DNA from: a virus
Taxonomy: Duplodnaviria > Caudoviricetes
Direction: 5' to 3' (one strand)
IMG/VR virus record: IMGVR_UViG_3300032086_001878
Location: 1-53,749 of that record
DNA length: 53,749 nucleotides
Below, piece by piece: positions 3,628-48,093 of this stretch (position 1 is its first letter; every line of letters begins with the position of its first letter). The translations under genes and the position numbers were made by a program. The notes below the pieces were generated by a model. The model had not been told where the DNA came from. It did not search any database and was given only the letters and a program-made list of their open reading frames with translations.

Positions 3628-5397
3628 ATGATAAAAAATGAATACGGGCCGACACTACCAATCTCTGAAGGAATACACGCCACTAAATACCGAAGTGAAG
3701 GTGAAACATTCTACGAGGCTATGACCAGAGTAGCAGACGCATTAAAAGACGATACTGTTCACTTCGAACAGTTTAGAACAATCCTTTATAACCAACGGTT
3801 CCTACCTGCAGGTAGAGTGCAATCAGCTATGGGTGCGCCCCGTACTGTAACGCCCTACAATTGCTTTGTTTCCTCTACGATTGAGGACAGTATGGATGGC
3901 ATCACCAGAGCCGTTGCAAGGGCCGCTAAGACCATGCAATTAGGTGGCGGTATCGGGTACGACTTCAGTACGTTACGGCCTCATGGGGCGCTTATAAAGA
4001 GCCTAGACAGCAAGTCTAGCGGCCCCCTAAGTTTCATGGGAATTTTTGATGCAACTTGCAAGACAATTAGCTCCGCAGGGCATCGAAGAGGCGCTCAAAT
4101 GGCAGTGATGCGAGTGGATCATCCTGACATCGAAAAGTTCATTCGGGCAAAGAACAATAGCACTGACCTAACCCAGTTTAACATGAGTGTTGCGGTCACC
4201 GATAAGTTCATGGAAGCGGTAAAAACAGACAGCGACTTTGACTTAGTTTTTGAGGGAACAGCTTACAAGACCGTCAAAGCAAAAGCTCTGTGGGATGATA
4301 TTCTCAGAAGTACATGGGATTGGGCTGAACCTGGAATCCTATTCATCGATAGAATTAATCAGAAGAATAATCTACACTATTGTGAAACGATTGCGGCTAC
4401 AAACCCTTGTGGTGAGCAACCATTGCCACCCAACGGTGCATGTTTACTAGGTTCATTTAATTTAACTAAGTACGTTGTGATGCATGATGCGGTAGGCAAA
4501 TGGGGCTTAAAGGATAAGTACGTCTTCAATATGAACATGCTCAAGAATGATATTCCTTGGGTAGTTCGGGCAATGGATAACGTAGTCGATAGAGCAACCT
4601 ACCCTCTTCCTGAACAAGAAGAAGAAGCCAAAAACAAAAGGCGCATGGGCTTGGGTGTTACTGGTGTTGCAAACGCTATCGAAGCTCTTGGCTTTGAGTA
4701 TGGCTCAGATGATTTCATCAGGATCTTCGAGGACATCATGGCTACCATCCGTGATGAAGCTTACAAAGCTTCCATAGAACTTGCTAAAGAAAAAGGTAAG
4801 TTTCCGCTATTTAAAAAGGATTACCTTACTAGCGGCTTTGCTATGACCTTACCAACTGAAATCAGGACTGAGATTGCAAAGCATGGCATCCGTAACAGCC
4901 ACCTTTTGTCTATAGCCCCAACGGGAACTATTTCTTTGACTGCAGATAATGTATCATCTGGCATAGAGCCTGTGTTTAATCATGGCTATGACCGCACGAT
5001 ACAAACCTACGATGGGCCTATCGTCGAGCGAGTAGATGATTATGGCTACCGTGAGTTTGGTGTAAAAGGAAAGACCGCTAACGAACTCTCAGTCTTCGAT
5101 CATGTGCGAGTTTTAAATATAGCAAGTAGATATGTTGATTCCGCTTGCTCGAAGACGTGCAATGTTGGTGACCATGTAAAATTTGATGAATTTAAAAAGG
5201 TATACATGGATGCATATGAGGGCGGTAGTAGCGGTTGCACAACTTTTCGTAGAAAAGGGAAGAGAAACGGCATTCTCAATGCTTCGGCATCTGAGGACGT
5301 TGTAGAAGAGCCTCAGAAAGAGGCCAACGCAGACTTCGTAGACGAAGGTGGGGCTTGTTACTTTGACCCATCAACAGGACTGCGAAAATGCGAGTAA
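3628..5397 (+). CDS. nrdJ: Ribonucleotide reductase, class II (B12-dependent)
   Basis: TNPCGEQ active site, NCF, SIAPTGT, C-terminal Cys pair; no beta-subunit gene seen; ATG 3628 follows GGAG. Confidence 0.85.
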   Translation: MIKNEYGPTLPISEGIHATKYRSEGETFYEAMTRVADALKDDTVHFEQFRTILYNQRFLPAGRVQSAMGAPRTVTPYNCFVSSTIEDSMDGITRAVARAAKTMQLGGGIGYDFSTLRPHGALIKSLDSKSSGPLSFMGIFDATCKTISSAGHRRGAQMAVMRVDHPDIEKFIRAKNNSTDLTQFNMSVAVTDKFMEAVKTDSDFDLVFEGTAYKTVKAKALWDDILRSTWDWAEPGILFIDRINQKNNLHYCETIAATNPCGEQPLPPNGACLLGSFNLTKYVVMHDAVGKWGLKDKYVFNMNMLKNDIPWVVRAMDNVVDRATYPLPEQEEEAKNKRRMGLGVTGVANAIEALGFEYGSDDFIRIFEDIMATIRDEAYKASIELAKEKGKFPLFKKDYLTSGFAMTLPTEIRTEIAKHGIRNSHLLSIAPTGTISLTADNVSSGIEPVFNHGYDRTIQTYDGPIVERVDDYGYREFGVKGKTANELSVFDHVRVLNIASRYVDSACSKTCNVGDHVKFDEFKKVYMDAYEGGSSGCTTFRRKGKRNGILNASASEDVVEEPQKEANADFVDEGGACYFDPSTGLRKCE

Positions 5398-5436
5398 GTG
5401 AGGCTAGGGTTTCCGTAATGTTATTGAGGCAGTTTC

Positions 5437-5631
5437 ATGCAGGAAGACCCCTACCAGACAGGTTATCAAGATTTCTTCGAAGGAAACCTAACCTGTAAAT
5501 ATCGATCCCGAAGCTTCTATGCAAAAGAGTGGCTTCGGGGTTTCAACGCAGCATTCAACTATAACAGGCAAGCAAATGTACAAAGAGTTCCAGAAAAAAG
5601 ACTACCAAGAGTCAGATGGTGCAGCCCGTGA
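5437..5631 (+). CDS. Rmf/CrpP-fold-like small protein
   Basis: GY....G....C.Y......W..GF spacing resembles ribosome modulation factor; GAGG RBS. Confidence 0.5.
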   Translation: MQEDPYQTGYQDFFEGNLTCKYRSRSFYAKEWLRGFNAAFNYNRQANVQRVPEKRLPRVRWCSP

Positions 5632-5998
5632 AGCAGCTAAAAGCTTTTGGCGTTCACTGGGGTATGTTTGTAAGGACAATCCTGACGAGTTCGGGGTTGA
5701 CCTAATAGTTGAAGGACGTAACAGGCGTTTCTACTGTGAAGTAGAGCGTAAGAAGGTTTGGCATGGTGTTTCGTTTAAGTACGACACCATCCACCTTCCT
5801 GTTCGTAAGGCTAAGTTCCTTAACAAACCCACACAGTTCATGGTGTTCAACAACAGTTTGACCCATGCCGCCATCTTTGGACGCAAGATTGTTAAGGAAA
5901 GCCCAACTGCAGAAGTACCTAACTACAAGATTGCTTTCGGTGAAAAGTTCTACGATGTTCCAGTAGCCAAAGCTCACTTTATTAAGACACTTAACTAA
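5576..5998 (+). CDS. Putative PD-(D/E)xK endonuclease
   Basis: FGVDLIV..FYCEVERK; ATG at 5576 preferred over the track start. Confidence 0.55.
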   Translation: MYKEFQKKDYQESDGAAREAAKSFWRSLGYVCKDNPDEFGVDLIVEGRNRRFYCEVERKKVWHGVSFKYDTIHLPVRKAKFLNKPTQFMVFNNSLTHAAIFGRKIVKESPTAEVPNYKIAFGEKFYDVPVAKAHFIKTLN

Positions 5999-6012
5999 TT
6001 TATTTTTAGGTA

Positions 6013-6041
6013 TTGACTAAGTGGCGTTTTGATTCTACTAT
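6013..6041 (+). promoter_or_regulatory. sigma70 promoter of sRNA-1
   Basis: TTGACT-N17-TACTAT; overlaps ACTAAGTGGCGT motif and a GATTC. Confidence 0.7.
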
Positions 6042-6047
6042 TAGAGT

Positions 6048-6178
6048 TATCAAAGGAATGTTTCTTTCTTTCTGTCCTTTGTGTTTCTGTTTTGGGAAGT
6101 TACGGTGATTGGTCGCACTGGCTTCGTTGGATATGGGTAAACCCTCGTAGGCACTTAAACTTACGGGGGTTTATTTTT
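6048..6178 (+). ncRNA. Candidate sRNA-1 (three hairpins, one with an AUUGGUC loop)
   Basis: Own promoter; stem CAAAGGA/TCCTTTG; GGTG/CACT stem around ATTGGTCG; 14-bp terminator stem plus T-tract. Confidence 0.6.
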
Positions 6179-6189
6179 AGAGATAAAAA

Positions 6190-6264
6190 ATGTGGATTGA
6201 TTTAGTAATAATTGTTGGGGCCGTGATAATACTGTACACGGTCTGGAAGGATACAAACGACTGA
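6190..6264 (+). CDS. 24-aa hydrophobic peptide MWIDLVIIVGAVIILYTVWKDTND
   Basis: Manually translated; single TM-like segment; weak RBS. Confidence 0.45.
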   Translation: MWIDLVIIVGAVIILYTVWKDTND

Positions 6265-6282
6265 CAAAAAGCCCCGTAGCTA

Positions 6283-6312
6283 TTGACCACAGGGCTTTAG
6301 ATCGTATATAAT
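6283..6312 (+). promoter_or_regulatory. sigma70 promoter of sRNA-2
   Basis: TTGACC-N18-TATAAT. Confidence 0.65.
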
Positions 6313-6318
6313 ATACTT

Positions 6319-6386
6319 GAAGTTGGCGGTTTGGTCACTGCCTTTTTCAGTTTAGTAACCCTAGGCTTAATCGCCTAGGGTTTTTA
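6319..6386 (+). ncRNA. Candidate trans-antisense sRNA-2
   Basis: GGCGGT-[TTGGTC]-ACTGCC hairpin, then terminator AACCCTAGG/CCTAGGGTT plus T-tract; complementary to early-gene leaders. Confidence 0.7.
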
Positions 6387-6390
6387 CTTT

Positions 6391-6567
6391 TCAGGTAACG
6401 ATTATATCTTCACCATCATCATAACTTGAGCCATCCTTGAACGGTATTGCAGTAAAAGTGTCGAGAGTGCATACGATCAAATATTGCTGATCTGCTTCTT
6501 TACTTTTTTGCGCTGCCTCAAGCAATGCATTGCCAAATTCATTGGCTTTTTGTGCAGTTAATAGCAT
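6391..6567 (-). CDS. 58-aa hypothetical protein (paralog of 46259-46438)
   Basis: MLLTAQKANEFGNALLEAAQKSKEADQQYLIV...; strong AAAGGAG RBS; not in the ORF track. Confidence 0.8.
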   Translation of the reverse strand: MLLTAQKANEFGNALLEAAQKSKEADQQYLIVCTLDTFTAIPFKDGSSYDDGEDIIVT

Positions 6568-6738
6568 TAACTACTCCTTTATTATATGTTACTACAACAG
6601 GCGTTATTAGAGGGAACTACCCTCTGCCTAATGTAATTCTGACGTAGGAAGTACTCAAAGGTCAACAGATAAATTTGCGTAATTTTTTGAAAACTTTGTT
6701 GACTCGAAAAAAGTCAATAAAATCAATGCTGCCAAAAG

Positions 6739-6747
6739 TTATCCACA
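6739..6747 (+). promoter_or_regulatory. DnaA box
   Basis: Perfect TTATCCACA in an intergenic region. Confidence 0.4.
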
Positions 6748-6791
6748 TCTATATGTTGATATTTACCAGGTCTAAAATCAATATATAGTAT
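6746..6791. promoter_or_regulatory. Tandem NrdR-box-like pair
   Basis: Cores CTATATGTTG (6749) and CAATATATAG (6779), 30 bp apart. Confidence 0.35.
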
Positions 6792-6876
6792 GCGATACTA
6801 TGGGATGTATAGCATAAAAATAAAAAAAAACTCCCGAATCATTTGACCCAAGAGCTTTTATTCTATTATGAATAGT

Positions 6877-6939
6877 TAAAGGGATTAACTACCCCTTTGT
6901 TATATGTTACGCCCCCTAGCTTCGGCTTGGGGGTTTTTT
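6877..6939 (+). ncRNA. Candidate antisense sRNA-3
   Basis: TTGACC at 6843; AAAGGG-[ATTAACTAC]-CCCTTT hairpin; TTCG terminator plus T6; 25/27 match to 6566-6592. Confidence 0.7.
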
Positions 6940-9900
6940 ATTGGTAGCCTATTAAGTTTTGCATTTGCTGATCTAGGTTGTTTTTTGCATTCTCAGCTTG
7001 CGCCAAATAATCTGCTAGAGCCATCATAAAATCTTGCTCTCCACCTTCGCTTTCATCATCATACAACTCAGATCTTACGAGCCAAGCATAGAAGAGTTCC
7101 TGTTGATTTTGCGACATAGCAACGTCACCGTCAGGAACAACCTGCCTCGCTACTTTTACAAACTCTTGTGGCTTTGATAGCAATTGTTCAGCTAACCGTG
7201 CAGACTCTGCCCCGTCCAGTTTCTCGCCTAAGAAACCAACGGCCCCTGATCGCACCCTTGCACCAATACGGCTCAAAGCACCGAAGGTCAAAGTAACCAA
7301 TCTGTTTACTGCGGCAATAGATGCGGCTTTGTCTGCGGTTATGGAATTACCTGCACCAGAGGTAGCTTTCCTTGTTCCCACCTGAACGCCACTTAGCCTT
7401 AATAAGGTTTCCAACCCTGCTACATTTTCAGGATTGTTTTTGAATATTAAATTAGCCTTATCTAAATAATCCGTAAAATTTTCTAGTTCCTGCGTAATCT
7501 TGGCTTCGCTAACGCCACGTTGGTTTGGCATTTCTTTTGATAGAATTAAGAACTTATCTTTAAAAAACTTACTAAATGCCGCCTCAACACCTTTTTGTGC
7601 AAGTTCTCTTTCCACAGGATCACCGATTGCGTCTATCTTTGAAAGTAATTCAGGAAGATCACCTGATAACTGCCCATCGACAACACCCATAGCCTGTTTG
7701 TCATTAAAGTATTTATTAAGAACTTCAGTTGTATTCGGGTTTACTTTTCCTTCAGCATTTTGAAAGAACCTGCCTAGTGCGCCCTCGTATGCTTGTTGCT
7801 TTGCTTCCTCAAGTTTTAAAGTTGCCCCGTCTAGCCTTAGTTGCAATTCAGGGGTTATTTTCTCTAACCTTTGGATTTGTCGTAGGAAGGAGCGAACCTG
7901 ATCTGCAGCCTCTTTGGTGGCAGGGTTTCTATCTAGTAAGCTTGCACGGCTCTCAAGAGCTTGCCTGACTGCAGTAAAATCAACTTCATCTAATGCCCTA
8001 CCTGACTGTGAAGAAATGTTACTTACAGCGTCTGCAATAACGTAATCCACTACGTCCTCAACAGATTGACCACCCTCACTACGCAGAAGTACATTTAGAA
8101 TACCTTCGCCCTGCGCTCTGTTTACATCCAACAAACCTGACTCAACACTTTGTCGGGTTAAATCCCTTGCACCTGCTTGGTTTAATCTTCCTGCGCTACT
8201 GTTAGCAAAGTTATCTACGTTTTGAAGAATACCACCATCACGCCAATACTTAGAATACTGATTTCTGTAGTAATCCATAGCGTCTTGTGCAGCCGCCAGT
8301 TTATTAACCTGCCCTGTTTCATCTAAGTACAGAATAGCGTCATCATCTATTAATCTTTTAAGACCTGCTAAATTACTTATTGCTGTAGTTGCAGGAAGTG
8401 ATCCATCACGCTCAAGTTGGTTTAAGGTATCAGCTAAGTTAGGACGTATTTTTGTGTATAGATCCTCGAAGGTTACTTTATTACTTAAAAACTTTATGGC
8501 TTCATCACGATCCATTTGAGAGACTACAGCTAGTAGTTCACCTAACTGAGCATTTCCAGGTTTCTTAGGATTACCTGCATCTAAAAATTCTTTATTAAGA
8601 GTTTGTAATTGATCATACAGACGTTCACCAAACTGAACTCCATCATCATCCGCTATATTTAAACGCCCACCTTTAATCTTGTTGAAAAGATCATTTTTCT
8701 TTTGGTTCATTTGCCTACTGGCACTTACAAGTTTATCAAGTATTGCATCTGCACTATCAGCTTTGTTGATCGCTATGGAAACGCCATCTACTTCGTTTAA
8801 TTGTTCTAGTTTAGAACCAAAGAACGGATCATTTTGTATCTGACTTGTAATTCGATTTTTGAAATCAGTAATTGCATTTTCTGCTTTGGCTACATCATCT
8901 GCGGCACTCCTTATAGGTGCATTGGCAGCATCCCGTAGTGCATCGCCTGTCTGATCTACAGCGGATTGACCGCCTCTTACATCAAACATTTCGTCAGTAG
9001 TTTGAGCTAGTACCCTAGCAGGTTCTCCCTGCTTTGTAGCAAGTTGCCCAGTGTTTAGCTTATTGCCTAGCGCACCCTGTTCTATCACTTGGGAAGAGGT
9101 AATAATTCTTTTTGCGGTTTCGGTGTCATTGTTTCTGAGGGCATACTGAACTGCAGCTAACGTACTTAGACCTACCTTAACCTTATCATCATCAATCATA
9201 GTAATGATTTCATCATTATCTTCTATGAGCTTAACAAGATCACGCTTTATCTGAACAAGTTCATCTGCGGAAGCGGATGGATCTGCAGCTATTGATAGTC
9301 TGTTCAAAACATCATCAACAAATGCTTTCTCTCTACTAGCGGTACTGAGTACTCCTGTAAGTGTAGCTGCACCAGAAAAGAGGTATAAAACCTTGGCACT
9401 TTTTGCTACGCCTTTTGCACCTGTCTGAAGTGTTCGGGCAGCGAATAAAGCATCAGCTAAAACATTAGCCTTGTTCGCCAATATTTGTTGGTATTCAGGG
9501 GCATCGGGATCTACTGCAATCCCTTGGGTAAGGGGATAGATAGCAGCATTTTCTCCAATGAATGCGGTTGGAATATCAGGACTTAGAGCCGCTGCCATAC
9601 CTGCTTCAGTGGATAAAACCTTAACAGTGTTTGCTGCTTTAGGTGAATACTTTAATAAGTCAGTAGATATTTTTCTGGCATCATTTGTACCACCTAGCTT
9701 TGATGATACACGGGATATACCCTCTACAACTTTATCTCCACCTTTACCGCCTATTACACCACCAGTTAGTAACTGTGTTCCCTCAAAAAGTAGGGCATCA
9801 ACGATACCGCCATCACCTGCAGCTACATCAGGCAACACTTCATCTACAACCCCTACAGCATCCGTTGTTAAATCCACATTTGGTATCGTTCCAATAGACG

Positions 9901-10737: not shown

Positions 10738-13368
10738 TTAATTATTCCCAAGTATTTTTGCAGCCGCACCCTTGCCAAATAAAAGATCAAATTCTGCGGC
10801 TTTGTCTGGATTATTTATTAAAGCTTGCCTTGCTTTTTGATTTGGTACAGGAAACCCACCTGTCATAGTGTTATCAAATGCTTTAGTCAGAGTTGCACTG
10901 TCTCTTTCTGTAACAAAGGTCTGAAAGTTTTTAAGTGGGGCTACGGGCGACCACTTAAATCGTTGTTTAAAATCTGCGACTAATCCCGTGTTTTCTGCTT
11001 GGAATACAGCATCATCATAGGACTCTACTTTAGATCGCATATACCCTCTAAGGTTATCCGCAAACGCCTGAACACTGCCTGAAGTATTCAACATTTGTGT
11101 TAGACGCTCGAAGTCTTTGTTAGACATTGCGTTTCCAGATTGTCCTTCAATTCTACCGCTGCGGAATGCTAGGATCACCATAGTAGCTTGAAATTTGGCT
11201 GTTTCATCTGCAAGATTTTGAACGTCTTTAGATACGATAGCATCTAGTATATTTTTTCCTACGCCCTGTTGCTGCAAGGCACTGAGCAATTGATCCTCAG
11301 TAATATAAGTAACTGATGCACCCGTTTCATCTACACCTTCTGTTGCATTCTGAAACAAACTAGCTGTTACATCTATAATGTTAGATGTTCCTCTGACAGT
11401 GCCAGTTACTAACTGAGCAAAAGAACCACCTGCATTTCTAACCATTGGGCTATTTGTAGCGATTTCTATTGCCAACTCTGAGTTTCGTAGAGCTTCGGCT
11501 AATGATACACCACTAGCACTTAATTCCTTAATATACTTTTGTTGTTGTGCAGAGATTTTATTAAATTGCTCTAGCTCTGGTTCAGACATCTTCCTAAAGT
11601 TAGCAGTATCTACAGAAGTGCCATCTGTTAAAGTAAGGTTACCATCCGCATCTTTTTTGACTTGAACAAATGATTCAGTTTTTGTTTTTGGATCTATGAG
11701 TACACCTGCAAATGTTTCGCTACCGTACACTCCTGCAGCAAGTTGAGCTTCTTTTTCTTTTTGTTTTTTCTGTCTTTCAGCTAACTCTGTTAAACCATCA
11801 ATTATTTCTTGGCTTTCTTCATTTTGTATAGCGACCTGTATCTGCCCAAGCGTTCTATCATAAGTAATAGAATTTTTAACATATTCAGCAAACTTAGCAT
11901 CACCCTCTAGTATTCTTCGAGTATTTAATCTGGCATTTATAATATTTAGGTCTTCAACTTTAGCCCCAAGTTGGGTTGCCGTAGCTTTTCTTTCTGCAAG
12001 TTCTACTGATGTTAAGCCAATCAAGCTTTCGGGATTTAGCAAGCTTTCAAGAAGATCTTTATTAGAAGCTTTAGTTGCATCCGCTTGGAAACCTGCAACT
12101 ATTTTCTCAGCAATCTGCATTTGAGTATAAGTACCTGTGGCACGAAGCTTATTAAGCTCTGCCTCTGCAGTTTTCAAATCGGTAATGTTTTCAATAAATG
12201 CCCGTGACTCATTTGCACGAAGTTCGCCCTCTTGTATATCAAGGGCTGTTTTACCTTCAGGACTTATATTGAGGCCATTAGCGGCAATGCTGCGTCTATA
12301 TGCTTTAATGGCTGCTACAGAAGTTAAATCTTGGAAAGGTATTTTGTCTACATTCTGACCTACCATTTGAGTGAGTAGCTTATACTCTCTACTCTCCCTT
12401 ATTACTTTTTTAGCATCGTCTGATTCAGCAATTTCTATTTCAGCATTTAGACGATCCAACATACTTTTTGCTAATGCAGGATCTTTTGTTGCTTCATCTA
12501 AATTAGCTTCTGTATCTTGACCTTTAAGTAGTTCAATCCTCGCTGTTATTTCTTTTAGTTGTGCGCTATCTTCTGGGATCAGACCTTTTGCCTCAAGTTC
12601 TTTCATATAGGCTTCAGCATCAGCTAAGTTTGTCATTCTTTCTTTATCTAATTCGAAAGCTTTAGGATCTACCTCTATACCAAACTGTTTAGTTTCAGCC
12701 TGTGTTACTTCGCTTGGCTGAAGTTGTTGCGGCCCGAAAGCTTTCATCATCTGTTGAGCTTCGCTCATCAGTTCAGGTGACTTTATAAGGTCACCATCTT
12801 TATTAACATAACCAACACTACCATCTGCAATATTTTGAAGATCAAGTGAAGTTAAAGGTCTAACAGTACCGCTGTCATCAGTTATTTTTTTAACACCACC
12901 AACACCATCATCTAGTCTTAAAGGTGGAAGTTTATCGATACGGGCTGAAGTTACATCCTCAACGATAGGCTCTAGCTCTTTTTCCCTCAGACGCTTTAAC
13001 TTCATATCGCTATCAGCTTTTGTCTGAACAAAACTAGAGTCATCATTATACAGAAACAATTGCTCAGTAAGGTATGTAACTGCCTCAGTATTACCTTCGG
13101 AAAACCCAAGGTCTTTGGCTAATGCCTCTGCTTTGCGCTTTCTATTTGCTGCAGCCTGTTCTTTAGCTTTTTGCTCTTTAGCTAACTCACGGGCTTCTTC
13201 AAGCTTACGTTTTTCTTCTTCCCTTCGTCTCTCACCTTGCCGCAATAAACCCTCTGCAACAATGTTACTTGCCGCCATAAATCCATCTTGAATTGTAGTA
13301 TCAGGCTTTTGATATTTACCTGAAGCAATACCTTTACTTATTCGAGCCTTACTAGCAGCAAAAGACAT
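10738..13368 (-). CDS. Probable internal virion protein
   Basis: 876 aa, coiled-coil-like; position in structural operon. Confidence 0.55.
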   Translation of the reverse strand: MSFAASKARISKGIASGKYQKPDTTIQDGFMAASNIVAEGLLRQGERRREEEKRKLEEARELAKEQKAKEQAAANRKRKAEALAKDLGFSEGNTEAVTYLTEQLFLYNDDSSFVQTKADSDMKLKRLREKELEPIVEDVTSARIDKLPPLRLDDGVGGVKKITDDSGTVRPLTSLDLQNIADGSVGYVNKDGDLIKSPELMSEAQQMMKAFGPQQLQPSEVTQAETKQFGIEVDPKAFELDKERMTNLADAEAYMKELEAKGLIPEDSAQLKEITARIELLKGQDTEANLDEATKDPALAKSMLDRLNAEIEIAESDDAKKVIRESREYKLLTQMVGQNVDKIPFQDLTSVAAIKAYRRSIAANGLNISPEGKTALDIQEGELRANESRAFIENITDLKTAEAELNKLRATGTYTQMQIAEKIVAGFQADATKASNKDLLESLLNPESLIGLTSVELAERKATATQLGAKVEDLNIINARLNTRRILEGDAKFAEYVKNSITYDRTLGQIQVAIQNEESQEIIDGLTELAERQKKQKEKEAQLAAGVYGSETFAGVLIDPKTKTESFVQVKKDADGNLTLTDGTSVDTANFRKMSEPELEQFNKISAQQQKYIKELSASGVSLAEALRNSELAIEIATNSPMVRNAGGSFAQLVTGTVRGTSNIIDVTASLFQNATEGVDETGASVTYITEDQLLSALQQQGVGKNILDAIVSKDVQNLADETAKFQATMVILAFRSGRIEGQSGNAMSNKDFERLTQMLNTSGSVQAFADNLRGYMRSKVESYDDAVFQAENTGLVADFKQRFKWSPVAPLKNFQTFVTERDSATLTKAFDNTMTGGFPVPNQKARQALINNPDKAAEFDLLFGKGAAAKILGNN

Positions 13369-17112: not shown

Positions 17113-18672
17113 CTATCCCTGAGTAGTATTAAAAGGAGTTTGTTGGGACATTAATCCCTGCAAAAGTTGCGTTTTATTTGCTAATTCAGGAGACATTGGG
17201 GATGAACCCTGCGGCCTACCGTCTAAGAAGGATAATAAATTAGCAACATTAATATTCTTACCACCTAGACTGACTCCCCGTGAGTTAACTATACTTGTCC
17301 TCAAGTTAGTTTGTTCATCCATAACTCTGCTAGTTACATTCCCTTGCTGATCTATACTTTGAGGTATAAATCGACCTTTTTGATCAAATGCATTTGCGAG
17401 AGCCGTATAATCAGACCTAATATTTTCAGGAATATTTTGTCCACTTTGCATCAAAATTTGCTTAATAGTAGCCAGTTTACTAGCTACCTGATTTTGGGCA
17501 TCCGCTTGAGTTGGGGTAGTTGCTTGAACACCTGATGCCAATTCTTTTATTGATTGTGTTAGGCTTAAATTTGGTGTTCTGGCAGCAAGAGCCTGTTGAG
17601 CTTGATTTGCCTCTACTTGATCCGCTACTCTATTAACATTTTTTTGCGTACTTTCAAAGTTATTACCCATGTCTTCACGCATACGATTAAAGCCGCCTAC
17701 AACCGTGTCCTGCAGATCGGCACGGGTTTGATTAGCTAAAGTTACGTCTGAATCATACGTATCACGAAAGTCAGTAAACCCTGTTTGCAAACCTCCAAGA
17801 TTTTCCAATAGCTGAGATTGATTACCTGAAAGACCTTCATAGTATGTGTCAGCCCTACCAGACATATCATTTAGGTAATCTTGTAGGGAAGCTTGCCCAC
17901 CTAGTACGTTAGTAGAGAGAGTAGCCAAATCTTCGTTTTGAGATGCAAATTGGTTATCTATATTTTCAAAGCCTGAAGTTAAATTATTACCTACAGTAGT
18001 AATTCCCTCAGAGACATCTCCAGACAGATCACTAATTTGGTTGGAAATACCTGTTTGACCAGTTCCTAAACCTGTAAGTTGGTCACCTGTAGTTGCAAAA
18101 CCTTCATCTATAGAAGTTCCAAGACCTTCAACGCCTGTCTTTATGGCTCCAGTATCATCTTTAATAGCAGAAACATCCGTGCCTAAACCTTCAACGCCTG
18201 TCTTTATGGCTCCAGTATCATCCAAGATTGCTCCAGTATCATCCAAGACACTCGTAAATCCTTGATCCATCTCATCGGCTTTAGCTAGGTCAGAGGTATC
18301 AATTGTAGTGTTTGTGACATTTACAGGCTGAAATGTTTCAAAACCTGTCGTAATCTGATCTGATATATCTGACTGACCGCCAATAAGCGTCTCTGTATCT
18401 CCTTTAACCGTATCAGTTACTGCAACTGTGTCACCACCAAAGTTAACAGTATTAGTACCTGTCGTAACTTCGCCAGTTTCAGGATCGACAGAAGTGGTTG
18501 GAATATCCATTGTTCCACCAGGAGCATCCACTGTTCCAGAAGATGTGCCTATTGTGTTATCTACAATGGTTTCTACTTCTTCAGCCGTAGCGCCATCGTC
18601 TCCACCTTTGAAAGCTATCAACCCACTATTTCGAGGGTTCAACCAAGGCATAAATGGGTTGTACAATTTCAT
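17113..18672 (-). CDS. Virion protein with internal repeats
   Basis: 519 aa; DDTGAIKTGVEGLGT repeats. Confidence 0.6.
   Translation of the reverse strand: MKLYNPFMPWLNPRNSGLIAFKGGDDGATAEEVETIVDNTIGTSSGTVDAPGGTMDIPTTSVDPETGEVTTGTNTVNFGGDTVAVTDTVKGDTETLIGGQSDISDQITTGFETFQPVNVTNTTIDTSDLAKADEMDQGFTSVLDDTGAILDDTGAIKTGVEGLGTDVSAIKDDTGAIKTGVEGLGTSIDEGFATTGDQLTGLGTGQTGISNQISDLSGDVSEGITTVGNNLTSGFENIDNQFASQNEDLATLSTNVLGGQASLQDYLNDMSGRADTYYEGLSGNQSQLLENLGGLQTGFTDFRDTYDSDVTLANQTRADLQDTVVGGFNRMREDMGNNFESTQKNVNRVADQVEANQAQQALAARTPNLSLTQSIKELASGVQATTPTQADAQNQVASKLATIKQILMQSGQNIPENIRSDYTALANAFDQKGRFIPQSIDQQGNVTSRVMDEQTNLRTSIVNSRGVSLGGKNINVANLLSFLDGRPQGSSPMSPELANKTQLLQGLMSQQTPFNTTQG
18124..18248. repeat. Coding direct repeats (36 bp at 63-bp period; 19 bp at 21-bp period)
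   Basis: accttcaacgcctgtctttatggctccagtatcatc at 18124 and 18187. Confidence 0.85.
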
Positions 18673-21317: not shown

Positions 21318-21800
21318 TTAATAATCTCCAAATGCTAATGTTGAGGCATAAGAAAATCCTTGTATGCCTGTCAGAGCAGAACCGTTTAAAGCAGGGAGGT
21401 TTCCGCTAGAGTCCAGTTGTGGAATGTTGTTTGCCCCTGTGCCTACATTCAGCGCAGCCGCTGTTCCTAGGCTTGGTGTTCCAGTTACGTCTGAGTAAGC
21501 ACCACTAGTTGCTACCGTTGCTAACCCAGTGACATCAGATGCTGCCCCAGAGGTGGCTACTGCGGCTAATCCACTTACATCAGATGCTGCCCCACTAGTT
21601 GCTACAGCCGCTAGACTAGAAGTAGCCGCCTTGGTGTTAATCTGAGTTTGAACATCTGAAGTAACCCCTGCGAGTCGGTTTATCTCAGTGGAAGAAACCG
21701 TTACGCCTGTTATTTCAGTACTATCAATAGCACCGTCTGCGAGGATACCAGTTCCTACACCTGTACTAATAAAGTCGGCAAGAGTTCTTGCTCTAGACAT
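21318..21800 (-). CDS. Tail fiber-like protein with AAVATSGAASDV repeats
   Basis: Three near-identical repeats; LGTAAALNVGTG. Confidence 0.65.
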   Translation of the reverse strand: MSRARTLADFISTGVGTGILADGAIDSTEITGVTVSSTEINRLAGVTSDVQTQINTKAATSSLAAVATSGAASDVSGLAAVATSGAASDVTGLATVATSGAYSDVTGTPSLGTAAALNVGTGANNIPQLDSSGNLPALNGSALTGIQGFSYASTLAFGDY

Positions 21801-29949: not shown

Positions 29950-30165
29950 TGTTAATACTCCTTTTGAAATGGCAGGTCAGCTAATGCTGACAGACTATAT
30001 CAGAAGGTAACAATTTAGTGGCAGTGCGTTCTGCAAGGGTGCATATGTATTTGCGGTACACATGGGCCTCGCTACACTGGTGGACTGTTTGTTTAAGTCT
30101 TCTGGTTATGAACGGGTTAGGGGTAGTCAAATGAGGCCCTATTCCGAAAAGCTTCATTACTAATA

Positions 30166-30194
30166 ATTATAGCACAACTGCGCCACTTAGTAAA
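30166..30194 (-). promoter_or_regulatory. Capsid-gene promoter containing the ACTAAGTGGCG motif
   Basis: TTTACT-N17-TATAAT with TG extension. Confidence 0.7.
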
Positions 30195-30222
30195 TAGCTA
30201 ATTAAGTTAGTGGCTATGCCAC

Positions 30223-39400: not shown

Positions 39401-39922
39401 TTACTGAGGGGAGTTTTGTTGTTTTAGCAAATCCGTTATGCAGGTAACCGCTAGAGGAACAGGGATCTTAAACCACTCATTAGCTTGAGATTCTGCTATC
39501 TCACTTACAGCTTCATGCGCCTGTCTTTCCAGATCCCTTCGATCATCGCTATGCACCTGATAATGTAACTGATAATCCCTAAACGGACTAGAGGTCTGAT
39601 AACTATTACATCGATCCTCTGCATCTATAGCCATGCCGACCTTAACCCAATCAGGCCATGCAGGATTAGTCAGGACATAAACATACCCTTCCTTGGTATT
39701 GCTATAGTTCTGCAGACTAGCAAATGCAGCCTCATCAAAAGACTTATATTTACCTGGCCTATACAAAGGATGCGTCTTTGGAATATACCTTCCATTAACG
39801 TACATTCTTGTATGGTTATGATCGTTATGACAGCTTTTGCAGACGTACCATTTCTTCTGAATACAGAAGTCGTGGATATTATCCCCTGCTACGAGATCTA
39901 CACCGCACTTAATGCACTGCAT
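39401..39922 (-). CDS. GIY-YIG superfamily (T5orf172-like) protein with N-terminal CxxC pairs
   Basis: GYVYVL..WVKVG..R..YQTSSP..E..H..EWF. Confidence 0.75.
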   Translation of the reverse strand: MQCIKCGVDLVAGDNIHDFCIQKKWYVCKSCHNDHNHTRMYVNGRYIPKTHPLYRPGKYKSFDEAAFASLQNYSNTKEGYVYVLTNPAWPDWVKVGMAIDAEDRCNSYQTSSPFRDYQLHYQVHSDDRRDLERQAHEAVSEIAESQANEWFKIPVPLAVTCITDLLKQQNSPQ

Positions 39923-40919: not shown

Positions 40920-41087
40920 CTAGTCTATTTCTAAAGACTTTCTAACCACTGTGAATAGTTTGTCCTGCAATCGTTCAGTTATCTTGCAAAGCTTTAGTAT
41001 ATCTTTAGCCGTTTCTGTCCTTCCTTCTTGCGCTAAGTCATAAGCTAAATTCTGGCGCATATAATCAATAAAATCATTATCTGTCAT
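40920..41087 (-). CDS. 55-aa putative early protein
   Basis: MTDNDFIDYMRQNL..; carries the shared GAAGGAATGACCAA leader; not in the ORF track. Confidence 0.75.
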   Translation of the reverse strand: MTDNDFIDYMRQNLAYDLAQEGRTETAKDILKLCKITERLQDKLFTVVRKSLEID

Positions 41088-41144
41088 TTGGTCATTCCTT
41101 CTTTCAGTTTAAAAGGGGCAAGCTTTAACTTACCCCTGCTTTAA

Positions 41145-41396
41145 TTATTGCGGTGTATCGATTGCGCTTATCGATTGAGACTCGAAGTTACCATTAGCTT
41201 TGTAAATGGTGGCTAAAACCTGTTTAGCTGTTTTGAATTTGAAGATTAAATTAGTTTGTTTTTCTAATTCTTTCAGGGCTTCAGTCTTTGTTTTATGCTT
41301 CGTGTAGAATGCCATTTGATTCCACAATGGTGGCACGGAATAACAAAGCCATGAGCTTTTACGTTTAAAGATTTTAAATTGTTCCTGTTCTTTCAT
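41145..41396 (-). CDS. Hypothetical putative early protein
   Basis: 83 aa; shared leader. Confidence 0.75.
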   Translation of the reverse strand: MKEQEQFKIFKRKSSWLCYSVPPLWNQMAFYTKHKTKTEALKELEKQTNLIFKFKTAKQVLATIYKANGNFESQSISAIDTPQ

Positions 41397-41473
41397 TTGG
41401 TCACTTCCTTTTAACAGTTTCAGTTTGTTGCAATGTGCAACGGAATACCCCCGATAAACTCAGGGGTTAACCG

Positions 41474-41874: not shown

Positions 41875-42284
41875 TAAAACAACTCCGTGAAATTATATGC
41901 CCCGTCGCTATCGATATATACAAAAGCTTTTGCATTTATGTATTGACCACCACCCCAAGGGTCATTTTCACTTATGCAAGTATAAGTGGCGGTTTTATCG
42001 AATTGGTTTGCCCTGTTATAATGCCCTTTGTAAAAGCTATATTTTGCGTCTGGCTTTTTCCAGAATTGATCACCTTTTTTTAAAGATTTTAAAGCCACCT
42101 TTTTGAAGGTATCACCGTATTTATTAGCCACTAAATTATGCTTCTTTAAATAAGCTTCAAATTCTTTATCACGTTTAGCTTGTTCAACCTCTTCGCTTGA
42201 AGCTAATTCAATCTTCACGTCTTCAGATTCATCAACCATTTTTGTTAAAGCTTCGATTAAGTTAATTTGTAATTGGTCTTTCAT
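41874..42284 (-). CDS. Hypothetical putative early protein
   Basis: 136 aa; shared leader. Confidence 0.75.
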   Translation of the reverse strand: MKDQLQINLIEALTKMVDESEDVKIELASSEEVEQAKRDKEFEAYLKKHNLVANKYGDTFKKVALKSLKKGDQFWKKPDAKYSFYKGHYNRANQFDKTATYTCISENDPWGGGQYINAKAFVYIDSDGAYNFTELF

Positions 42285-42340
42285 TTGGTCATTCCTTTTT
42301 TCAGTTTCAATTCGGCATAGCTACCGCATGCCTTGCCCCA

Positions 42341-43069: not shown

Positions 43070-43506
43070 TTTGAACCCCTTCCAAAATTTAGCATAGCCG
43101 CCAATGCAGGAACGGATTGACCCCATAAGTTTTGATTTTCACCGGTTACCCTTTTACTAACATTTATAACTAAAGCCCCGTTACGGTTCTTTTGAATTGC
43201 AACGGTATCACCTGCGGCAGCTTCTTTTTTTAAACCACTAATTGAGAAACGTTTATCTCCCCTTGTTTTGGTTTTATAAAAAGAAACTTTGCAGGGCTTT
43301 GAATTATCAAAACACCCGTCAATGGTTATCTTTTCCCCTGCTTTTAAATCGGTGTAATTAATGCCAATGCTTTCAGCTAATTCTATCACCGACTTATTGG
43401 CGTCAATAATGTGCTTGTTTAACATTGTATTGGTCAACTTAATGACTCCCGTTGTTGCGACTTTTCGCAAGTCTTCAAGAATTGATTCAACATTAAAATG
43501 TTTCAT
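43066..43506 (-). CDS. Hypothetical putative early protein
   Basis: 146 aa; shared leader. Confidence 0.75.
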   Translation of the reverse strand: MKHFNVESILEDLRKVATTGVIKLTNTMLNKHIIDANKSVIELAESIGINYTDLKAGEKITIDGCFDNSKPCKVSFYKTKTRGDKRFSISGLKKEAAAGDTVAIQKNRNGALVINVSKRVTGENQNLWGQSVPALAAMLNFGRGSK

Positions 43507-43838
43507 TTGGTCATTCCTTCTTTTTCAAGTTTAGTTTGATTTTGTGCAGCGTCTTCAAGTCGGTTCATTAGAACCGCCAAAGCGTAACCCATATCGGAAA
43601 AGCTCGCCTGTTCAGCGCATTGCCGCACGTTTTCCCAAGTATGCATTTTGTACACGGGTTGCCTTGTTTGTGGGGCTTGCGGTTCTATCGTTGTCGAAGA
43701 TCCACAAACTTTATTTTCGTTTAAGAAGTTTAAAAGGTTAGGTTTATCAGTCGGAACGTTAACCGCTGAAGCTTTTATTTTCTTTGCCGCAGCTTGTGTT
43801 CCAACCCATTGCCCCGAATTATTTACATAAAGTTTCAT
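43503..43838 (-). CDS. Hypothetical putative early protein
   Basis: 111 aa; shared leader. Confidence 0.75.
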   Translation of the reverse strand: MKLYVNNSGQWVGTQAAAKKIKASAVNVPTDKPNLLNFLNENKVCGSSTTIEPQAPQTRQPVYKMHTWENVRQCAEQASFSDMGYALAVLMNRLEDAAQNQTKLEKEGMTK

Positions 43839-43918
43839 TTGGTCACTTTCTTTTAGTTTAGGTTAAAATCGATAAAGCGAAAAAGAAGGTGGCAAAAATT
43901 GCCACCCCTTGTAATAAA

Positions 43919-44812
43919 TCAAGCCACCAATTCATGAGTCATATCCCATAGGCTTTGATTAATTCGTATGTTTTCGCTCAAGGCTGTAATGCCTTTTGCC
44001 TTGCGTTGAATCCCGTTCCAATTTTTAGCGTCTAAATGCTTATTAGTAATTGAAACGATATTTACACCGCCCTTTAAAATGCTTTCCTGAATGCGGTTAA
44101 AAGCTTTCCACGCATTGCGCCCCGTATCTTCATAGCGACTTGGACGGGCTAAATCGTTTATAGTTTCTTCAGTGTAATATAAACCCGTTTCAGGTTCTTT
44201 ATGGTCAAAGCTAAATGACTTTAAACAATCAGGGGCTTCTTTCCAACGCAAGCTTGCAGCCTGTTCAGCTAAATCTAGAATCTGCTTCACGTTCAATTCA
44301 GTTTTAGAAAGCTTTTCAACTTGTTCTGAAACTTGCGGCAACCCGTCGAGAGTCTGATTAAGAAGCTTTTCAAAGTTATTAGCCGTTGTATGGCTATGCC
44401 GCATTATGTTTTTAAAGCCTTCCCCTGCAATCATTCCGTTATCACATACAAATCGAAAGATTCCTGCAAAAAGCTTTAAAGAGCTTCGGCCATCGTGAGA
44501 GTTGTATAATAAAACTTCGGTTCTAGACTCTAGATCCGTTTTAGCTAATTCGTCTTTATGGGAAAAAGCTATTAAGTGCTTATTATACTTTTCACGCCCG
44601 TCTTTTATATTGGGCTGTTGTTTAGCCCTAGTCGGTCTATAGCCGTAATCGCTTAAAACATTCATGGCTTCAATTGTATTAACAAGCCCATAACGGTTAG
44701 ACGTTTCAGGGCTTCGAATATCAGTTAGAACCGCAGGACAATTTTCTATTACTTCACTTATTGGAAGTGCTTTTGCTTTTGCGTCAAAGCTATGCATTAA
44801 ATCATATGGCAT
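43919..44812 (-). CDS. DUF932 family protein
   Basis: LLYNSHDGRSS..AGIFRFVCDNG..W.AFNRIQE..N..LW. Confidence 0.85.
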   Translation of the reverse strand: MPYDLMHSFDAKAKALPISEVIENCPAVLTDIRSPETSNRYGLVNTIEAMNVLSDYGYRPTRAKQQPNIKDGREKYNKHLIAFSHKDELAKTDLESRTEVLLYNSHDGRSSLKLFAGIFRFVCDNGMIAGEGFKNIMRHSHTTANNFEKLLNQTLDGLPQVSEQVEKLSKTELNVKQILDLAEQAASLRWKEAPDCLKSFSFDHKEPETGLYYTEETINDLARPSRYEDTGRNAWKAFNRIQESILKGGVNIVSITNKHLDAKNWNGIQRKAKGITALSENIRINQSLWDMTHELVA

Positions 44813-44873
44813 TGGTCATTTTCCTTTTCTGTTTAGCCAAAATAAAAGGGCAAGGTGTTTACCCTTGCCCCTT

Positions 44874-45214: not shown

Positions 45215-45981
45215 TATGCCGCCACCCTATCGAATACAAAGCTTTTACCTGAATCCATTAAATCAAACGGGCGGCATTCTGAAACTTGGCAGGGTTCAAC
45301 AATAAACAAGCCTTTTTGCTTTTTGTTTTTATTTCCCTTTAATTTTAAACCGCAAATTTTATTAAATGAATTAGCGTTTATTAAGTCGCTCTTATCCCCG
45401 TCTATAATTTCACGGCCTAGGAAATACTTTCCAACTGGTACTGAACCCCGAAATACTACAGCAATCGGAAAGCCTGTTTTCAGTGCTTCCTTAACTTGAT
45501 TCTGATATTGTGGAGTCCCTGAGTAGCTAAAAACTTTTTTATAATTCTTTAAGCCAGTGTTCAGGGTTTTTACTAGTTTTGTATAATCGTAAAAATAAGC
45601 TTGTGGAAATTGTTGCGGTATTCCTTCTTTAACCCAATTAATATCACTAATCGTATTTAATCGGAATGCAGCCTTGAAACCCTGCTTTTCAGTTTTTCTA
45701 ATAAAGGCTTCTATTTCTTTTCTAAGCTTTTCGAGAAACTTTTCACGCTCTTTTAAATACATTTCCGTTTTAAATTTACGGGCTAAATTCACAGACTCGA
45801 ACATTTCCGAAAATCCCGAATCCTTTAAGCATAACCGCATGCAATCGGCAGCTTTAGCCCCTGCACAAATGACGTTGTTAGGATATAGACTCAAGCTTGC
45901 AATCTTAAATTCTGTTCCGTTTTGGCTTTTGGCAATTTTTGAATTTGTGCCGCCAGTGTTCAATAGTTTAATATTCTTCAT
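45214..45981 (-). CDS. GP88-like protein
   Basis: C......C...CL..SG, FRLNTISDI.W, FYDYTK, IDGDKSDL. Confidence 0.65.
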   Translation of the reverse strand: MKNIKLLNTGGTNSKIAKSQNGTEFKIASLSLYPNNVICAGAKAADCMRLCLKDSGFSEMFESVNLARKFKTEMYLKEREKFLEKLRKEIEAFIRKTEKQGFKAAFRLNTISDINWVKEGIPQQFPQAYFYDYTKLVKTLNTGLKNYKKVFSYSGTPQYQNQVKEALKTGFPIAVVFRGSVPVGKYFLGREIIDGDKSDLINANSFNKICGLKLKGNKNKKQKGLFIVEPCQVSECRPFDLMDSGKSFVFDRVAA

Positions 45982-46203
45982 TTCGAAGTTTCCTTTTCAG
46001 TTTAGTTTTTGCGATTCGTTTTTGTTAATGGCGGTCAATCCATCCGAATCCCGATTAGTAAAAGCCCTTTTGATTCCTGAGTCAAACGCTTTATTAATTG
46101 GCTTTTTTATTTACTTTTTTGATTTTATTAAATTTTTTTTTCCGCACCTTATTATTGCATATTTCGTATAATTATGTTCTATATATATGGGTTATAATAT
46201 AAT

Positions 46204-47791: not shown

Positions 47792-47922
47792 AGGACATCA
47801 CAGAGGCACGAAGGGCGTTTGAAGAAGAATTAAAACGGCTAATTAAAAAGCCACCAAGCGTCCTGACTGAACGTCTTATAGACTTAATACAGGCAATACA
47901 AACTGAACTTAAAAAGGAATGA
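47788..47922 (+). CDS. 44-aa hypothetical protein
   Basis: ATGA-coupled to int; MKDITEARRAFEEEL.. Confidence 0.6.
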   Translation: MKDITEARRAFEEELKRLIKKPPSVLTERLIDLIQAIQTELKKE

Positions 47923-47925
47923 CCA

Positions 47926-48093
47926 ATGGATATAGCCCAGTTACCTATCAAGCTGTTAGCACATTTAGAATTTATCGGGGTGTTACCTCGCAGTGTGGAT
48001 GAAGATGGCGTTGATAATATCGAAACCCCTGAGATCGGTAAGAGCTTCTTTAGAAAGCCTGACTTCGATGCTCAAGGCGAACCAGAGTTCTAG
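47926..48093 (+). CDS. 55-aa hypothetical protein
   Basis: MDIAQLPIKL..; carries the shared AAAGGAATGACCA leader. Confidence 0.7.
   Translation: MDIAQLPIKLLAHLEFIGVLPRSVDEDGVDNIETPEIGKSFFRKPDFDAQGEPEF

Follow-up and report, generated by a model that had tools for sequence, protein, structure and literature searches.

The + strand of positions 6283-6392 of the window (the whole stretch of DNA that was analysed, a complete virus record of 53,749 bases with a 133-bp repeat at both ends) very likely carries a true small-RNA gene, as inferred from sequence alone and in the absence of expression data. Through its loop, the 3' arm of its hairpin and its tail, the predicted RNA is antisense to a leader (positions -26 to +1) that precedes seven minus-strand genes and one + strand gene of the same phage, and each of six phage lineages has its own version of the leader that matches its own version of the RNA. 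Pairing with these leaders is likely to be the function of the RNA, a reading also inferred from sequence alone that we hold less firmly than the existence of the gene; that the RNA acts in trans as an antisense RNA and represses the translation of a small regulon by covering the Shine-Dalgarno sequence and the start codon of its genes is also likely, with slightly less confidence, and both transcription and repression are inferred.

The large terminase encoded in the window is 72% identical to the terminases of the Roseobacter phages CRP-235, CRP-3 and CRP-738, about 70% identical to that of CRP-212 and 63% identical to that of Puniceispirillum phage HMO-2011, and the window phage is therefore a marine phage of the HMO-2011 type. 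Phages of this type are dominant and widely distributed in the ocean, and most members of subgroups I and III carry integrases (PMC9038755); CRP-3 integrates into a tRNA-Met gene of its host (PMC6918029). Genes in the window were called by simple ORF rules. The small-RNA locus sits in the gap between the converging + and minus gene arrays, about 35 kb from its putative targets:

From about 46.3 kb across the record ends to about 6.26 kb, + strand: gene array with integrase, DnaB-like helicase, DNA polymerase A (C-terminus 62-457) and ribonucleotide reductase
45,981 down to 6,391, minus strand: gene array with small ORFs first, followed by terminase, portal and large tail proteins
6283-6392, + strand: putative small-RNA gene as a whole, with promoter, hairpin, single-stranded tail and intrinsic terminator
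6283..6312, + strand: sigma-70-like promoter with -35 box TTGACC (6283-6288), 18-nt spacer and -10 box TATAAT (6307-6312)
6319..6392, + strand: predicted small RNA of about 70 nt, ends not mapped
6325..6342, + strand: hairpin 1, with the stem GGCGGT/ACTGCC (6325-6330 with 6337-6342) and the loop UUGGUC (6331-6336), the proposed seed
6343..6356, + strand: single-stranded tail, complementary to the part of the leader upstream of the Shine-Dalgarno sequence
6357..6392, + strand: intrinsic terminator with a 10-bp stem (6357-6382) and a 6-nt loop, followed by the T-tract TTTACTTTTC

The original prediction had described a TTGACC-N18-TATAAT promoter, a hairpin and a terminator with its T-tract on the + strand, and all three held, each in its expected place. 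The promoter agrees with 11 of 12 consensus positions and is the top promoter-like site within positions 5900-7100; it is close to the sigma-70 consensus and does not have the AGTGGCG-type motif of other promoter-like sites of the phage. The start of the RNA was placed about 7 nt past the -10 box and its end within the T-tract, both by inference. The 72-nt + strand RNA is predicted to fold with -29.8 kcal/mol (z = -5.6, 200 shuffles) into exactly two hairpins and has a U-rich 3' end; the loop of hairpin 1 is unpaired with a probability of at least 0.9 and the tail is unpaired in the fold too. Rfam has no family that reaches its gathering score anywhere in the window, and at E-values up to 1 no family overlaps positions 6319-6386 (only chance matches, far below threshold, were found outside the locus). 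ARAGORN predicts no tRNA or tmRNA gene in the window.

A megablast search of positions 5500-7500 against the phage collection returned no match. Instead, 36 related viral loci were retrieved via a neighbouring 159-aa protein (58-92% identity). The element is present in 35 of these 36 loci, and the sole exception (L008) stops short of the expected position. It is also present, unannotated, in the cultured phages CRP-235, CRP-3 and CRP-212, between the last + strand gene and the first minus-strand gene, and the cultured Roseobacter phage CRP-738 has an unannotated variant whose loop is larger. All 35 related loci and all four cultured phages share the same -35 box, the T-tract is on the + strand in every relative and each of the 25 distinct elements that were aligned has the loop TTGGTC unchanged. 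In contrast to these fixed parts, variation affects the -10 box and the promoter spacer as well as tail, terminator and stems, the stems by compensation.

A covariance model was built from 25 distinct elements of viral contigs (the window and 24 loci, after deduplication), leaving out the cultured phages. It recovers all 28 sources that it was given, the 25 building elements as well as the three cultured phages CRP-235, CRP-3 and CRP-212 (72, 48 and 31 bits, respectively), and on the window it matches positions 6315-6386 with 81 bits. A weak match of the model to CRP-738 (E 0.066) was set aside, being in coding-like sequence; the actual variant element of this phage was located by pattern search. 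Neither the covariance model nor the pattern search identified an element in HMO-2011, CRP-1, CRP-2 or CRP-207. The exact hairpin pattern is present in 22 viral contigs and has no match in genome contigs, and by that route neither a prophage copy nor a host was found.

Eight different stem versions were counted around the one unchanged loop. In an ungapped alignment that takes the loop as its anchor (25 sequences with 17 distinct rows), 94.1% of the cells of the hairpin are paired, all six base pairs have changed on both sides and none of 500 shuffles is as good; slid controls are only 36-60% paired. When both helices are considered (27 distinct rows), 91.8% of cells are paired, 12 of 16 base pairs have changed on both sides and again none of 500 shuffles is as good, but this test used an alignment based on the covariance model, which favours the model. 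Helix 2, the terminator, is 95.2% paired with changes on both sides in seven of ten pairs: its stem sequence has been replaced in other lineages while the pairing was retained. These data support the loop-seed hairpin of the original prediction. Stem cells contain 52 G-U combinations and 10 A-C combinations, as expected for an RNA of the + strand. The excess of G-U, the invariant -35 box and the T-tract on the + strand in all elements indicate an RNA transcribed from the + strand, as had been predicted, although no expression data exist. We infer from the sequences that the conserved hairpin is under selection as a + strand RNA structure.

Written in the sense of the mRNA, the leader consists of an A-rich stretch that starts from (A/C)TAAACTG, the Shine-Dalgarno sequence AAGGA and the motif TGACCAA immediately 5' of the ATG. 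The genes preceded by it start at 41087, 41396, 42284, 43506, 43838, 44812 and 45981 on the minus strand and at 47926 on the + strand, and two of them have family matches, DUF932 (44812) and GP88 (45981). Complementarity to the RNA and the rank in binding energy (see below) are given for each leader where available:

41087..41113, minus strand: leader of a 55-aa gene, 21/27 complementary, net binding -10.8 kcal/mol, rank 8/123
41396..41422, minus strand: leader of an 83-aa gene, 18/27 ungapped, rank 1/123 with -18.6 kcal/mol
42284..42310, minus strand: leader of a 136-aa gene, 21/27, binding rank 4
43506..43537, minus strand: leader of a 146-aa gene, short insertion in comparison with the other leaders, binding rank 3
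43838..43864, minus strand: leader of a 111-aa gene, carries TTTGGTCACT exactly, binding rank 2
44811..44837, minus strand: leader of the 297-aa DUF932 gene (Pfam PF06067), 20/27
45980..46006, minus strand: leader of the 255-aa GP88-family gene, 18/27, rank 5, tail part matches but GACCAA is missing
47902..47928, + strand: leader of a 55-aa gene, 17/27, rank 6, retained in the related loci L039-L042

The match counts of the original prediction (16/17 at 41396, 21/25 at 41087 and an exact TTTGGTCACT at 43838) all held. So did the 13-nt exact match near 45981, which is TTTTCAGTTTAGT and occurs at 45994 as well as at 6344, and the inverted form reported at the + strand gene at 47926: this gene is preceded by the motif in mRNA sense. 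On either genome strand, the motif is therefore oriented like the mRNA, indicating that the leader is tied to the transcript rather than to a DNA strand. The GP88 leader, which lacks GACCAA in the window, reads AACCAA in the relatives L040 and L042 and GACCAA in L041, and in the close relative L039 the motif precedes seven starts.

A 10-mer alone is within chance in the window, with seven matches at up to one mismatch against 4.2 expected (11 of 100 shuffles reach seven). The longer leader repeat exceeds chance. A repeat search returned a 24-nt family of five copies with 75-88% identity, and an ungapped scan with the 27-mer core identified 22 non-self sites with at least 17/27 matches, in comparison to a mean of 8.1 and a maximum of 20 for 200 shuffled cores. 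Of the 22 sites, eight have their end exactly at a start codon, among them the three best ones (21, 21 and 20 of 27). A self-composed 25-nt consensus of the leader had no match at up to three mismatches, because small insertions and deletions distinguish the leader copies. Most leaders of the window are mismatched with the 3' arm of the hairpin (at 41087, there are four mismatches in 25 positions), and the duplex would therefore be in two parts here: the loop with the closing base, followed by the tail. Several leaders come after a terminator-like hairpin; this hairpin-plus-leader layout is present before 44812, 43838 and 41087.

For the comparison between lineages, five near-complete genomes of relatives and the early regions of three cultured phages were used, as a search for loci via the GP88-family gene had returned only four loci. 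Every complete or cultured genome has its lineage-specific leader in front of three or more starts, and the incomplete genome G003 has it in front of two to four. The leaders of G001 and G004 contain an uninterrupted stretch of 12 bases (GGAACCGACCAA) that is perfectly complementary to the loop and the 3' arm of the RNA; in G002 and G003, the leader carries ACTAGCTAAAC, which matches the RNA tail. The leaders of CRP-3 and CRP-212 read (T)ATCTAACTTG and ATTCTAACT(G/A)G, respectively, and match the tails of their own RNAs. CRP-235 differs from the window by one extra base, present in tail and leaders alike. The base that adjoins GACCAA is T, C or G in three of the lineages, and the base that follows the loop of the RNA is A, G or C, respectively. 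The pattern GACCAAVATG, which is one base too long for the leaders of the window itself, forms clusters in G001 and G004. DUF932 orthologues have lineage-matched and differing leaders in five genomes (the window, CRP-235, G001, G004 and G002), and the same is true for the GP88 orthologues of three genomes (the window, G002 and G003). A mini-ORF (ATGACCAAATGA) lies upstream in some leaders; it is absent from lineages B and C and is not the conserved feature.

We compared the RNAs and leaders of the six lineages in all 6 x 6 combinations, including all GACCA...ATG sites that have an ORF of 40 aa or more and thus also chance sites. By local alignment score, the cognate RNA is best in four of six lineages; it is not best for G001 (lineage B) and, narrowly, not for CRP-235. 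By the longest Watson-Crick run, the cognate RNA is best in five of six lineages, with the window as the one narrow failure. It remains possible that the likeness of the RNA to the leaders partly reflects common descent or gene conversion among direct repeats.

Binding energies were calculated as the energy of the cofold minus the energies of the two monomers, as a stand-in for IntaRNA, and the target in each ORF of 50 aa or more was the region from -40 to +20 around its first ATG (123 starts). The eight leader genes occupy ranks 1-8 of 123 with -18.6 to -10.8 kcal/mol; the ninth start has -7.9 kcal/mol and the median is -2.1 kcal/mol. The leaders are mostly unpaired in their predicted fold. 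The claim of multiple targets at translation starts is supported by these eight leaders and by their ranks in a binding energy that takes structure into account. The shuffled controls that had been proposed alongside it were not beaten: when nucleotides 1-38 of the RNA were shuffled (24 shuffles), on average 13.5 of the 123 starts (range 0-37) reached the -10.8 kcal/mol of the weakest real target, with the caveat that the shuffled seeds have no hairpin that needs opening and are U/G-rich. A simple RNAduplex scan, run over the whole genome on both strands, gave much noise, with coding sites scoring equal to leaders. The ranking thus describes the specificity of the real RNA, and the energy, which is not exceptional, is not evidence by itself; the case rests on position, conservation and co-variation.

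In the mechanism that we propose, the loop UUGGUC would make the first contact with GACCAA, between the Shine-Dalgarno sequence and the AUG. Pairing would then extend, with the 3' arm of the hairpin covering the Shine-Dalgarno sequence and the tail pairing further upstream, until the leader is covered from -26 to +1. Loop-first contact followed by opening of the hairpin is likely, because the loop alone is always exposed and always complementary, but the kinetics are inferred; IS10 RNA-OUT and similar antisense RNAs are known to proceed in this order. The duplex would keep the 30S subunit off the mRNA, so that about eight genes would be repressed together, with cleavage of the duplex as a possible addition. 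The regulon would comprise the small ORFs that head the minus-strand array, including the DUF932 and GP88-family genes, and one gene of the + strand. A duplex that spans -26 to +1 and takes in the Shine-Dalgarno sequence, as it would in every lineage, has the geometry of translational repression. It remains an inference that the RNA is made, that its pairing represses translation and that its targets are early genes, as the original prediction had it, and the label 'early' was assumed from gene order only. As to timing, both a shut-off of early genes during infection and silencing in a lysogen are conceivable. The gene itself may have originated from a leader, as 'hairpin + leader' read backwards is 'anti-leader + hairpin': the covariance model weakly matches a backwards leader-plus-hairpin module at 41072-41127 (20.5 bits), which suggests how the small-RNA gene could have arisen.

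Of the alternatives to this mechanism, the one that survives best, while still unlikely, is that the RNA does pair with the leaders but with an outcome other than plain ribosome occlusion. Pairing could cause RNase III-type cleavage that processes or destroys a polycistronic early mRNA at each leader, or it could stabilise the mRNA, or the RNA could be titrated late by minus-strand read-through transcripts that contain its perfect complement. This would fit the length of the complementarity (about 25 nt) and its bipartite nature, as well as the position of the gene at the convergence of the arrays, where minus-strand read-through would produce an exact antisense. Against it stands that the Shine-Dalgarno sequence and the first base of the AUG are covered in every lineage, which is typical of translational repression.

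Very unlikely is that the hairpin is chiefly a protein-binding RNA, for example a decoy or operator for an RNA-binding protein of phage or host or an Hfq sponge, and that its likeness to the leaders is a relic of descent from a leader-plus-terminator module without any function in pairing. An invariant loop amid changing surroundings would also be expected from a protein recognition site, and the backwards module at 41072-41127 does weakly resemble the RNA gene. However, the tails, which are outside the hairpin, vary by lineage and track their own leaders, and pure descent would not maintain a match between tail and leader across lineages whose neighbouring protein is only about 58-69% identical.

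Less likely still is that the repeat acts as DNA, as an oriented operator of a phage repressor, with the copy at 6330 as just one of its sites. The repeat is asymmetric, lies near gene starts and is oriented with transcription on both strands, and the stoperators of Cluster A mycobacteriophages are likewise asymmetric sites near gene starts, oriented with transcription (PMC3203893). However, the repeat lies at a constant spacing from the ATG and has the Shine-Dalgarno sequence within it. At 6330, moreover, the two arms of the hairpin co-vary although the 5' arm does not belong to the leader motif, G-U pairs are tolerated, and a promoter and a T-tract on the + strand are conserved; a DNA site would need none of these.

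All but excluded is that the locus is a decayed leader whose minus-strand gene has been lost, placed behind a bidirectional terminator, with a promoter match due to chance and without any function as RNA: its minus strand does read hairpin plus leader, with the ATG lost, as before 44812, 43838 and 41087, but instead of decaying it is kept in 35 of 36 loci and in four cultured phages, with compensating changes in the stem, an invariant -35 box and loop, and a T-tract on the + strand. It is thus the combination of conservation, covariation and strand evidence that argues against this reading and that also makes a site acting purely at the DNA level unlikely. A peptide-coding function of the locus was ruled out, as stem covariation and lineage-specific tails are unlike a conserved peptide.

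Several phage RNAs are known to act by pairing. The loops of the c4 RNA of P1 and P7 pair in trans around a ribosome binding site and block translation, and, as with the RNA described here, sequences of RNA and target differ between related phages; for c4, these differences set specificity (PMC12197685). Unlike c4, which has a single leader as its target (icd-ant), the RNA of the window matches about eight separate leaders. The c4 RNA is cut from the same transcript as its target, while the window RNA has its own promoter and terminator at a distance of about 35 kb from its targets. Immunity RNAs of the P1/P7 c4 and P4 CI types have no Rfam model match in the window. IS10 RNA-OUT uses its hairpin loop to pair with linear mRNA sequence around the ribosome binding site, and every copy of the element is subject to its action in trans; unlike the window RNA, which is encoded elsewhere and only partly complementary, it is cis-encoded, overlaps its target and has only one kind of target. 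P22 sar and lambda OOP and aQ are small phage RNAs whose pairing reduces the expression of phage regulators (PMC12197685); all three are cis-antisense RNAs with a single target each and without a regulon defined by a shared leader. VpdS of phage VP882 and PreS of lambda are trans-acting, Hfq-dependent and have several targets, but these are mRNAs or small RNAs of the host, or various mRNAs of the phage, and not a repeated leader (PMC12197685).

In layout, the leaders most resemble the SAS of Cluster K phages, a conserved asymmetric repeat that includes the Shine-Dalgarno sequence and lies directly before many non-structural gene starts (PMC3203893). Genes with SAS come from unrelated families, one odd copy is away from a gene start and the partner, described as 'RNA or protein', is unknown (PMC3203893). 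The likeness does not extend to sequence or host: the 13-bp SAS consensus has one match at two mismatches in the window (0.49 expected), which is not at a leader. SAS are without a described partner RNA, whereas the leaders of the window now have a candidate. Repression of many mRNAs by a single phage factor is known from T4, where the protein RegA represses many early mRNAs at their initiation regions (a review is PMC3014915); unlike RegA, the factor of the window phage would be an RNA, with a target site that is much longer and more uniform. The sRNA2 of PAK_P3 was considered as a precedent for an RNA that matches many ribosome binding sites and was rejected: its published 11-nt stretch matches tRNA T-psi-C loops.

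We found no description of the small RNA in the literature searched. The main texts of PMC9038755 and PMC6918029 do not mention sRNA, small RNA, non-coding or promoter; their supplementary tables were outside the search. The phage small RNAs in the relevant sections of a 2025 review act on one phage gene or on host genes (PMC12197685), and none in those sections silences a set of phage genes via a common, co-evolving leader (PMC12197685).

A bolder reading is that RNA and shared leader are the master switch and immunity code of temperate HMO-2011-type phages. The RNA, produced constitutively, would silence the early regulon both in the lysogen and in superinfecting relatives, and the lineage versions of RNA and leader around a fixed loop would define heteroimmunity groups. 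A 'terminator + leader' read backwards would be a general and simple route to the birth of a small RNA, and the same logic might explain orphan repeats at gene starts, such as the Cluster K SAS. Taken jointly, we consider these proposals more likely to fail than to hold.

For the HMO-2011-type phages, a whole regulatory circuit becomes readable: a putative regulator, about eight operators and lineage-specific versions of both. The leaders also mark probable true start codons in annotated genomes and suggest a specific hypothesis on conserved repeats at gene starts that lack a known partner. The circuit is present in cultured phages too, including the integrating CRP-3 (PMC6918029), and is thus directly testable.

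A paralogous second small-RNA-like gene is found at window 6843-6940 on the plus strand; it scores 28.8 bits against the covariance model of the first RNA (the predicted small RNA with the UUGGUC hairpin loop), and further copies of it are present in the related viral loci L003, L005-L007 and L009-L011. The body of this second gene (6874-6910) shares 86% identity with 6556-6592 on the plus strand, which places the second RNA-like gene antisense to the leader and opening codons of a 58-aa gene situated between the two RNA genes. The version of the RNA in the cultured Roseobacter phage CRP-738 has TTGGTC within its 12-nt loop.

Predicted RNA genes, promoter-like motifs and leader motif sites (window coordinates unless a phage is named)
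6843-6940, plus: second small-RNA-like gene, with TTGACC, a hairpin (~6877-6897) and a terminator stem (6913-6933) with a T-tract after it
6391-6567, minus: 58-aa gene
CRP-738 (L070), 1501-1610, equal to record 12692-12800: RNA version with 9-bp stem and 12-nt loop
6006-6043, plus; 30164-30201, in inverted orientation; minus strand, ahead of 40290, 40817 and 42284: AGTGGCG promoter-like motif
CRP-3 (L061), ~8671-8686; CRP-235 (L063), ~5384-5447: leader motif sites at odds with annotated starts

Just upstream of the promoter of the first RNA there is a hydrophobic mini-ORF of 24 codons (6190-6264, plus strand), flanked by two terminator-like hairpins, the second of which holds the -35 box of the first RNA in its loop. 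A different promoter-like motif is repeated in the window and consists of TTGACT or a weaker box, with AGTGGCG within the spacer; possibly, this is a second, phage-specific promoter class that differs from the promoter of the first RNA.

The window starts and ends with a direct repeat of 133 bp (1-133 and 53617-53749, 99% identity) and the ORF at its left end (62-457) is a C-terminal fragment of DNA polymerase A, indicating that the record is a complete genome opened within the polymerase gene. Structural genes on the minus strand have in-frame tandem repeats at 21480-21613 and 18116-18247, with units of 45 nt, and of 63 and 21 nt. The gene for a protein with a T5orf172/MUG113 domain (39401-39922, minus strand) separates the small-ORF region from the packaging genes; this protein family is frequently associated with homing endonuclease-like genes.

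Three of the window leaders that carry the GACCAA start motif (41087, 42284 and 43506) contain a three-codon mini-ORF, ATG ACC AAA TGA, the stop of which overlaps the true start codon; leaders 41396 and 43838 have the same mini-ORF, but with GTG. The two lineages of near-complete relatives with their own leader versions (G001/G004 and G002/G003) lack this mini-ORF, and it is therefore likely to be incidental. The start codons indicated by the leader motif differ from the annotation for CRP-3 gp60 and CRP-235 gp57, and the motif may serve for start-codon correction across this phage group.
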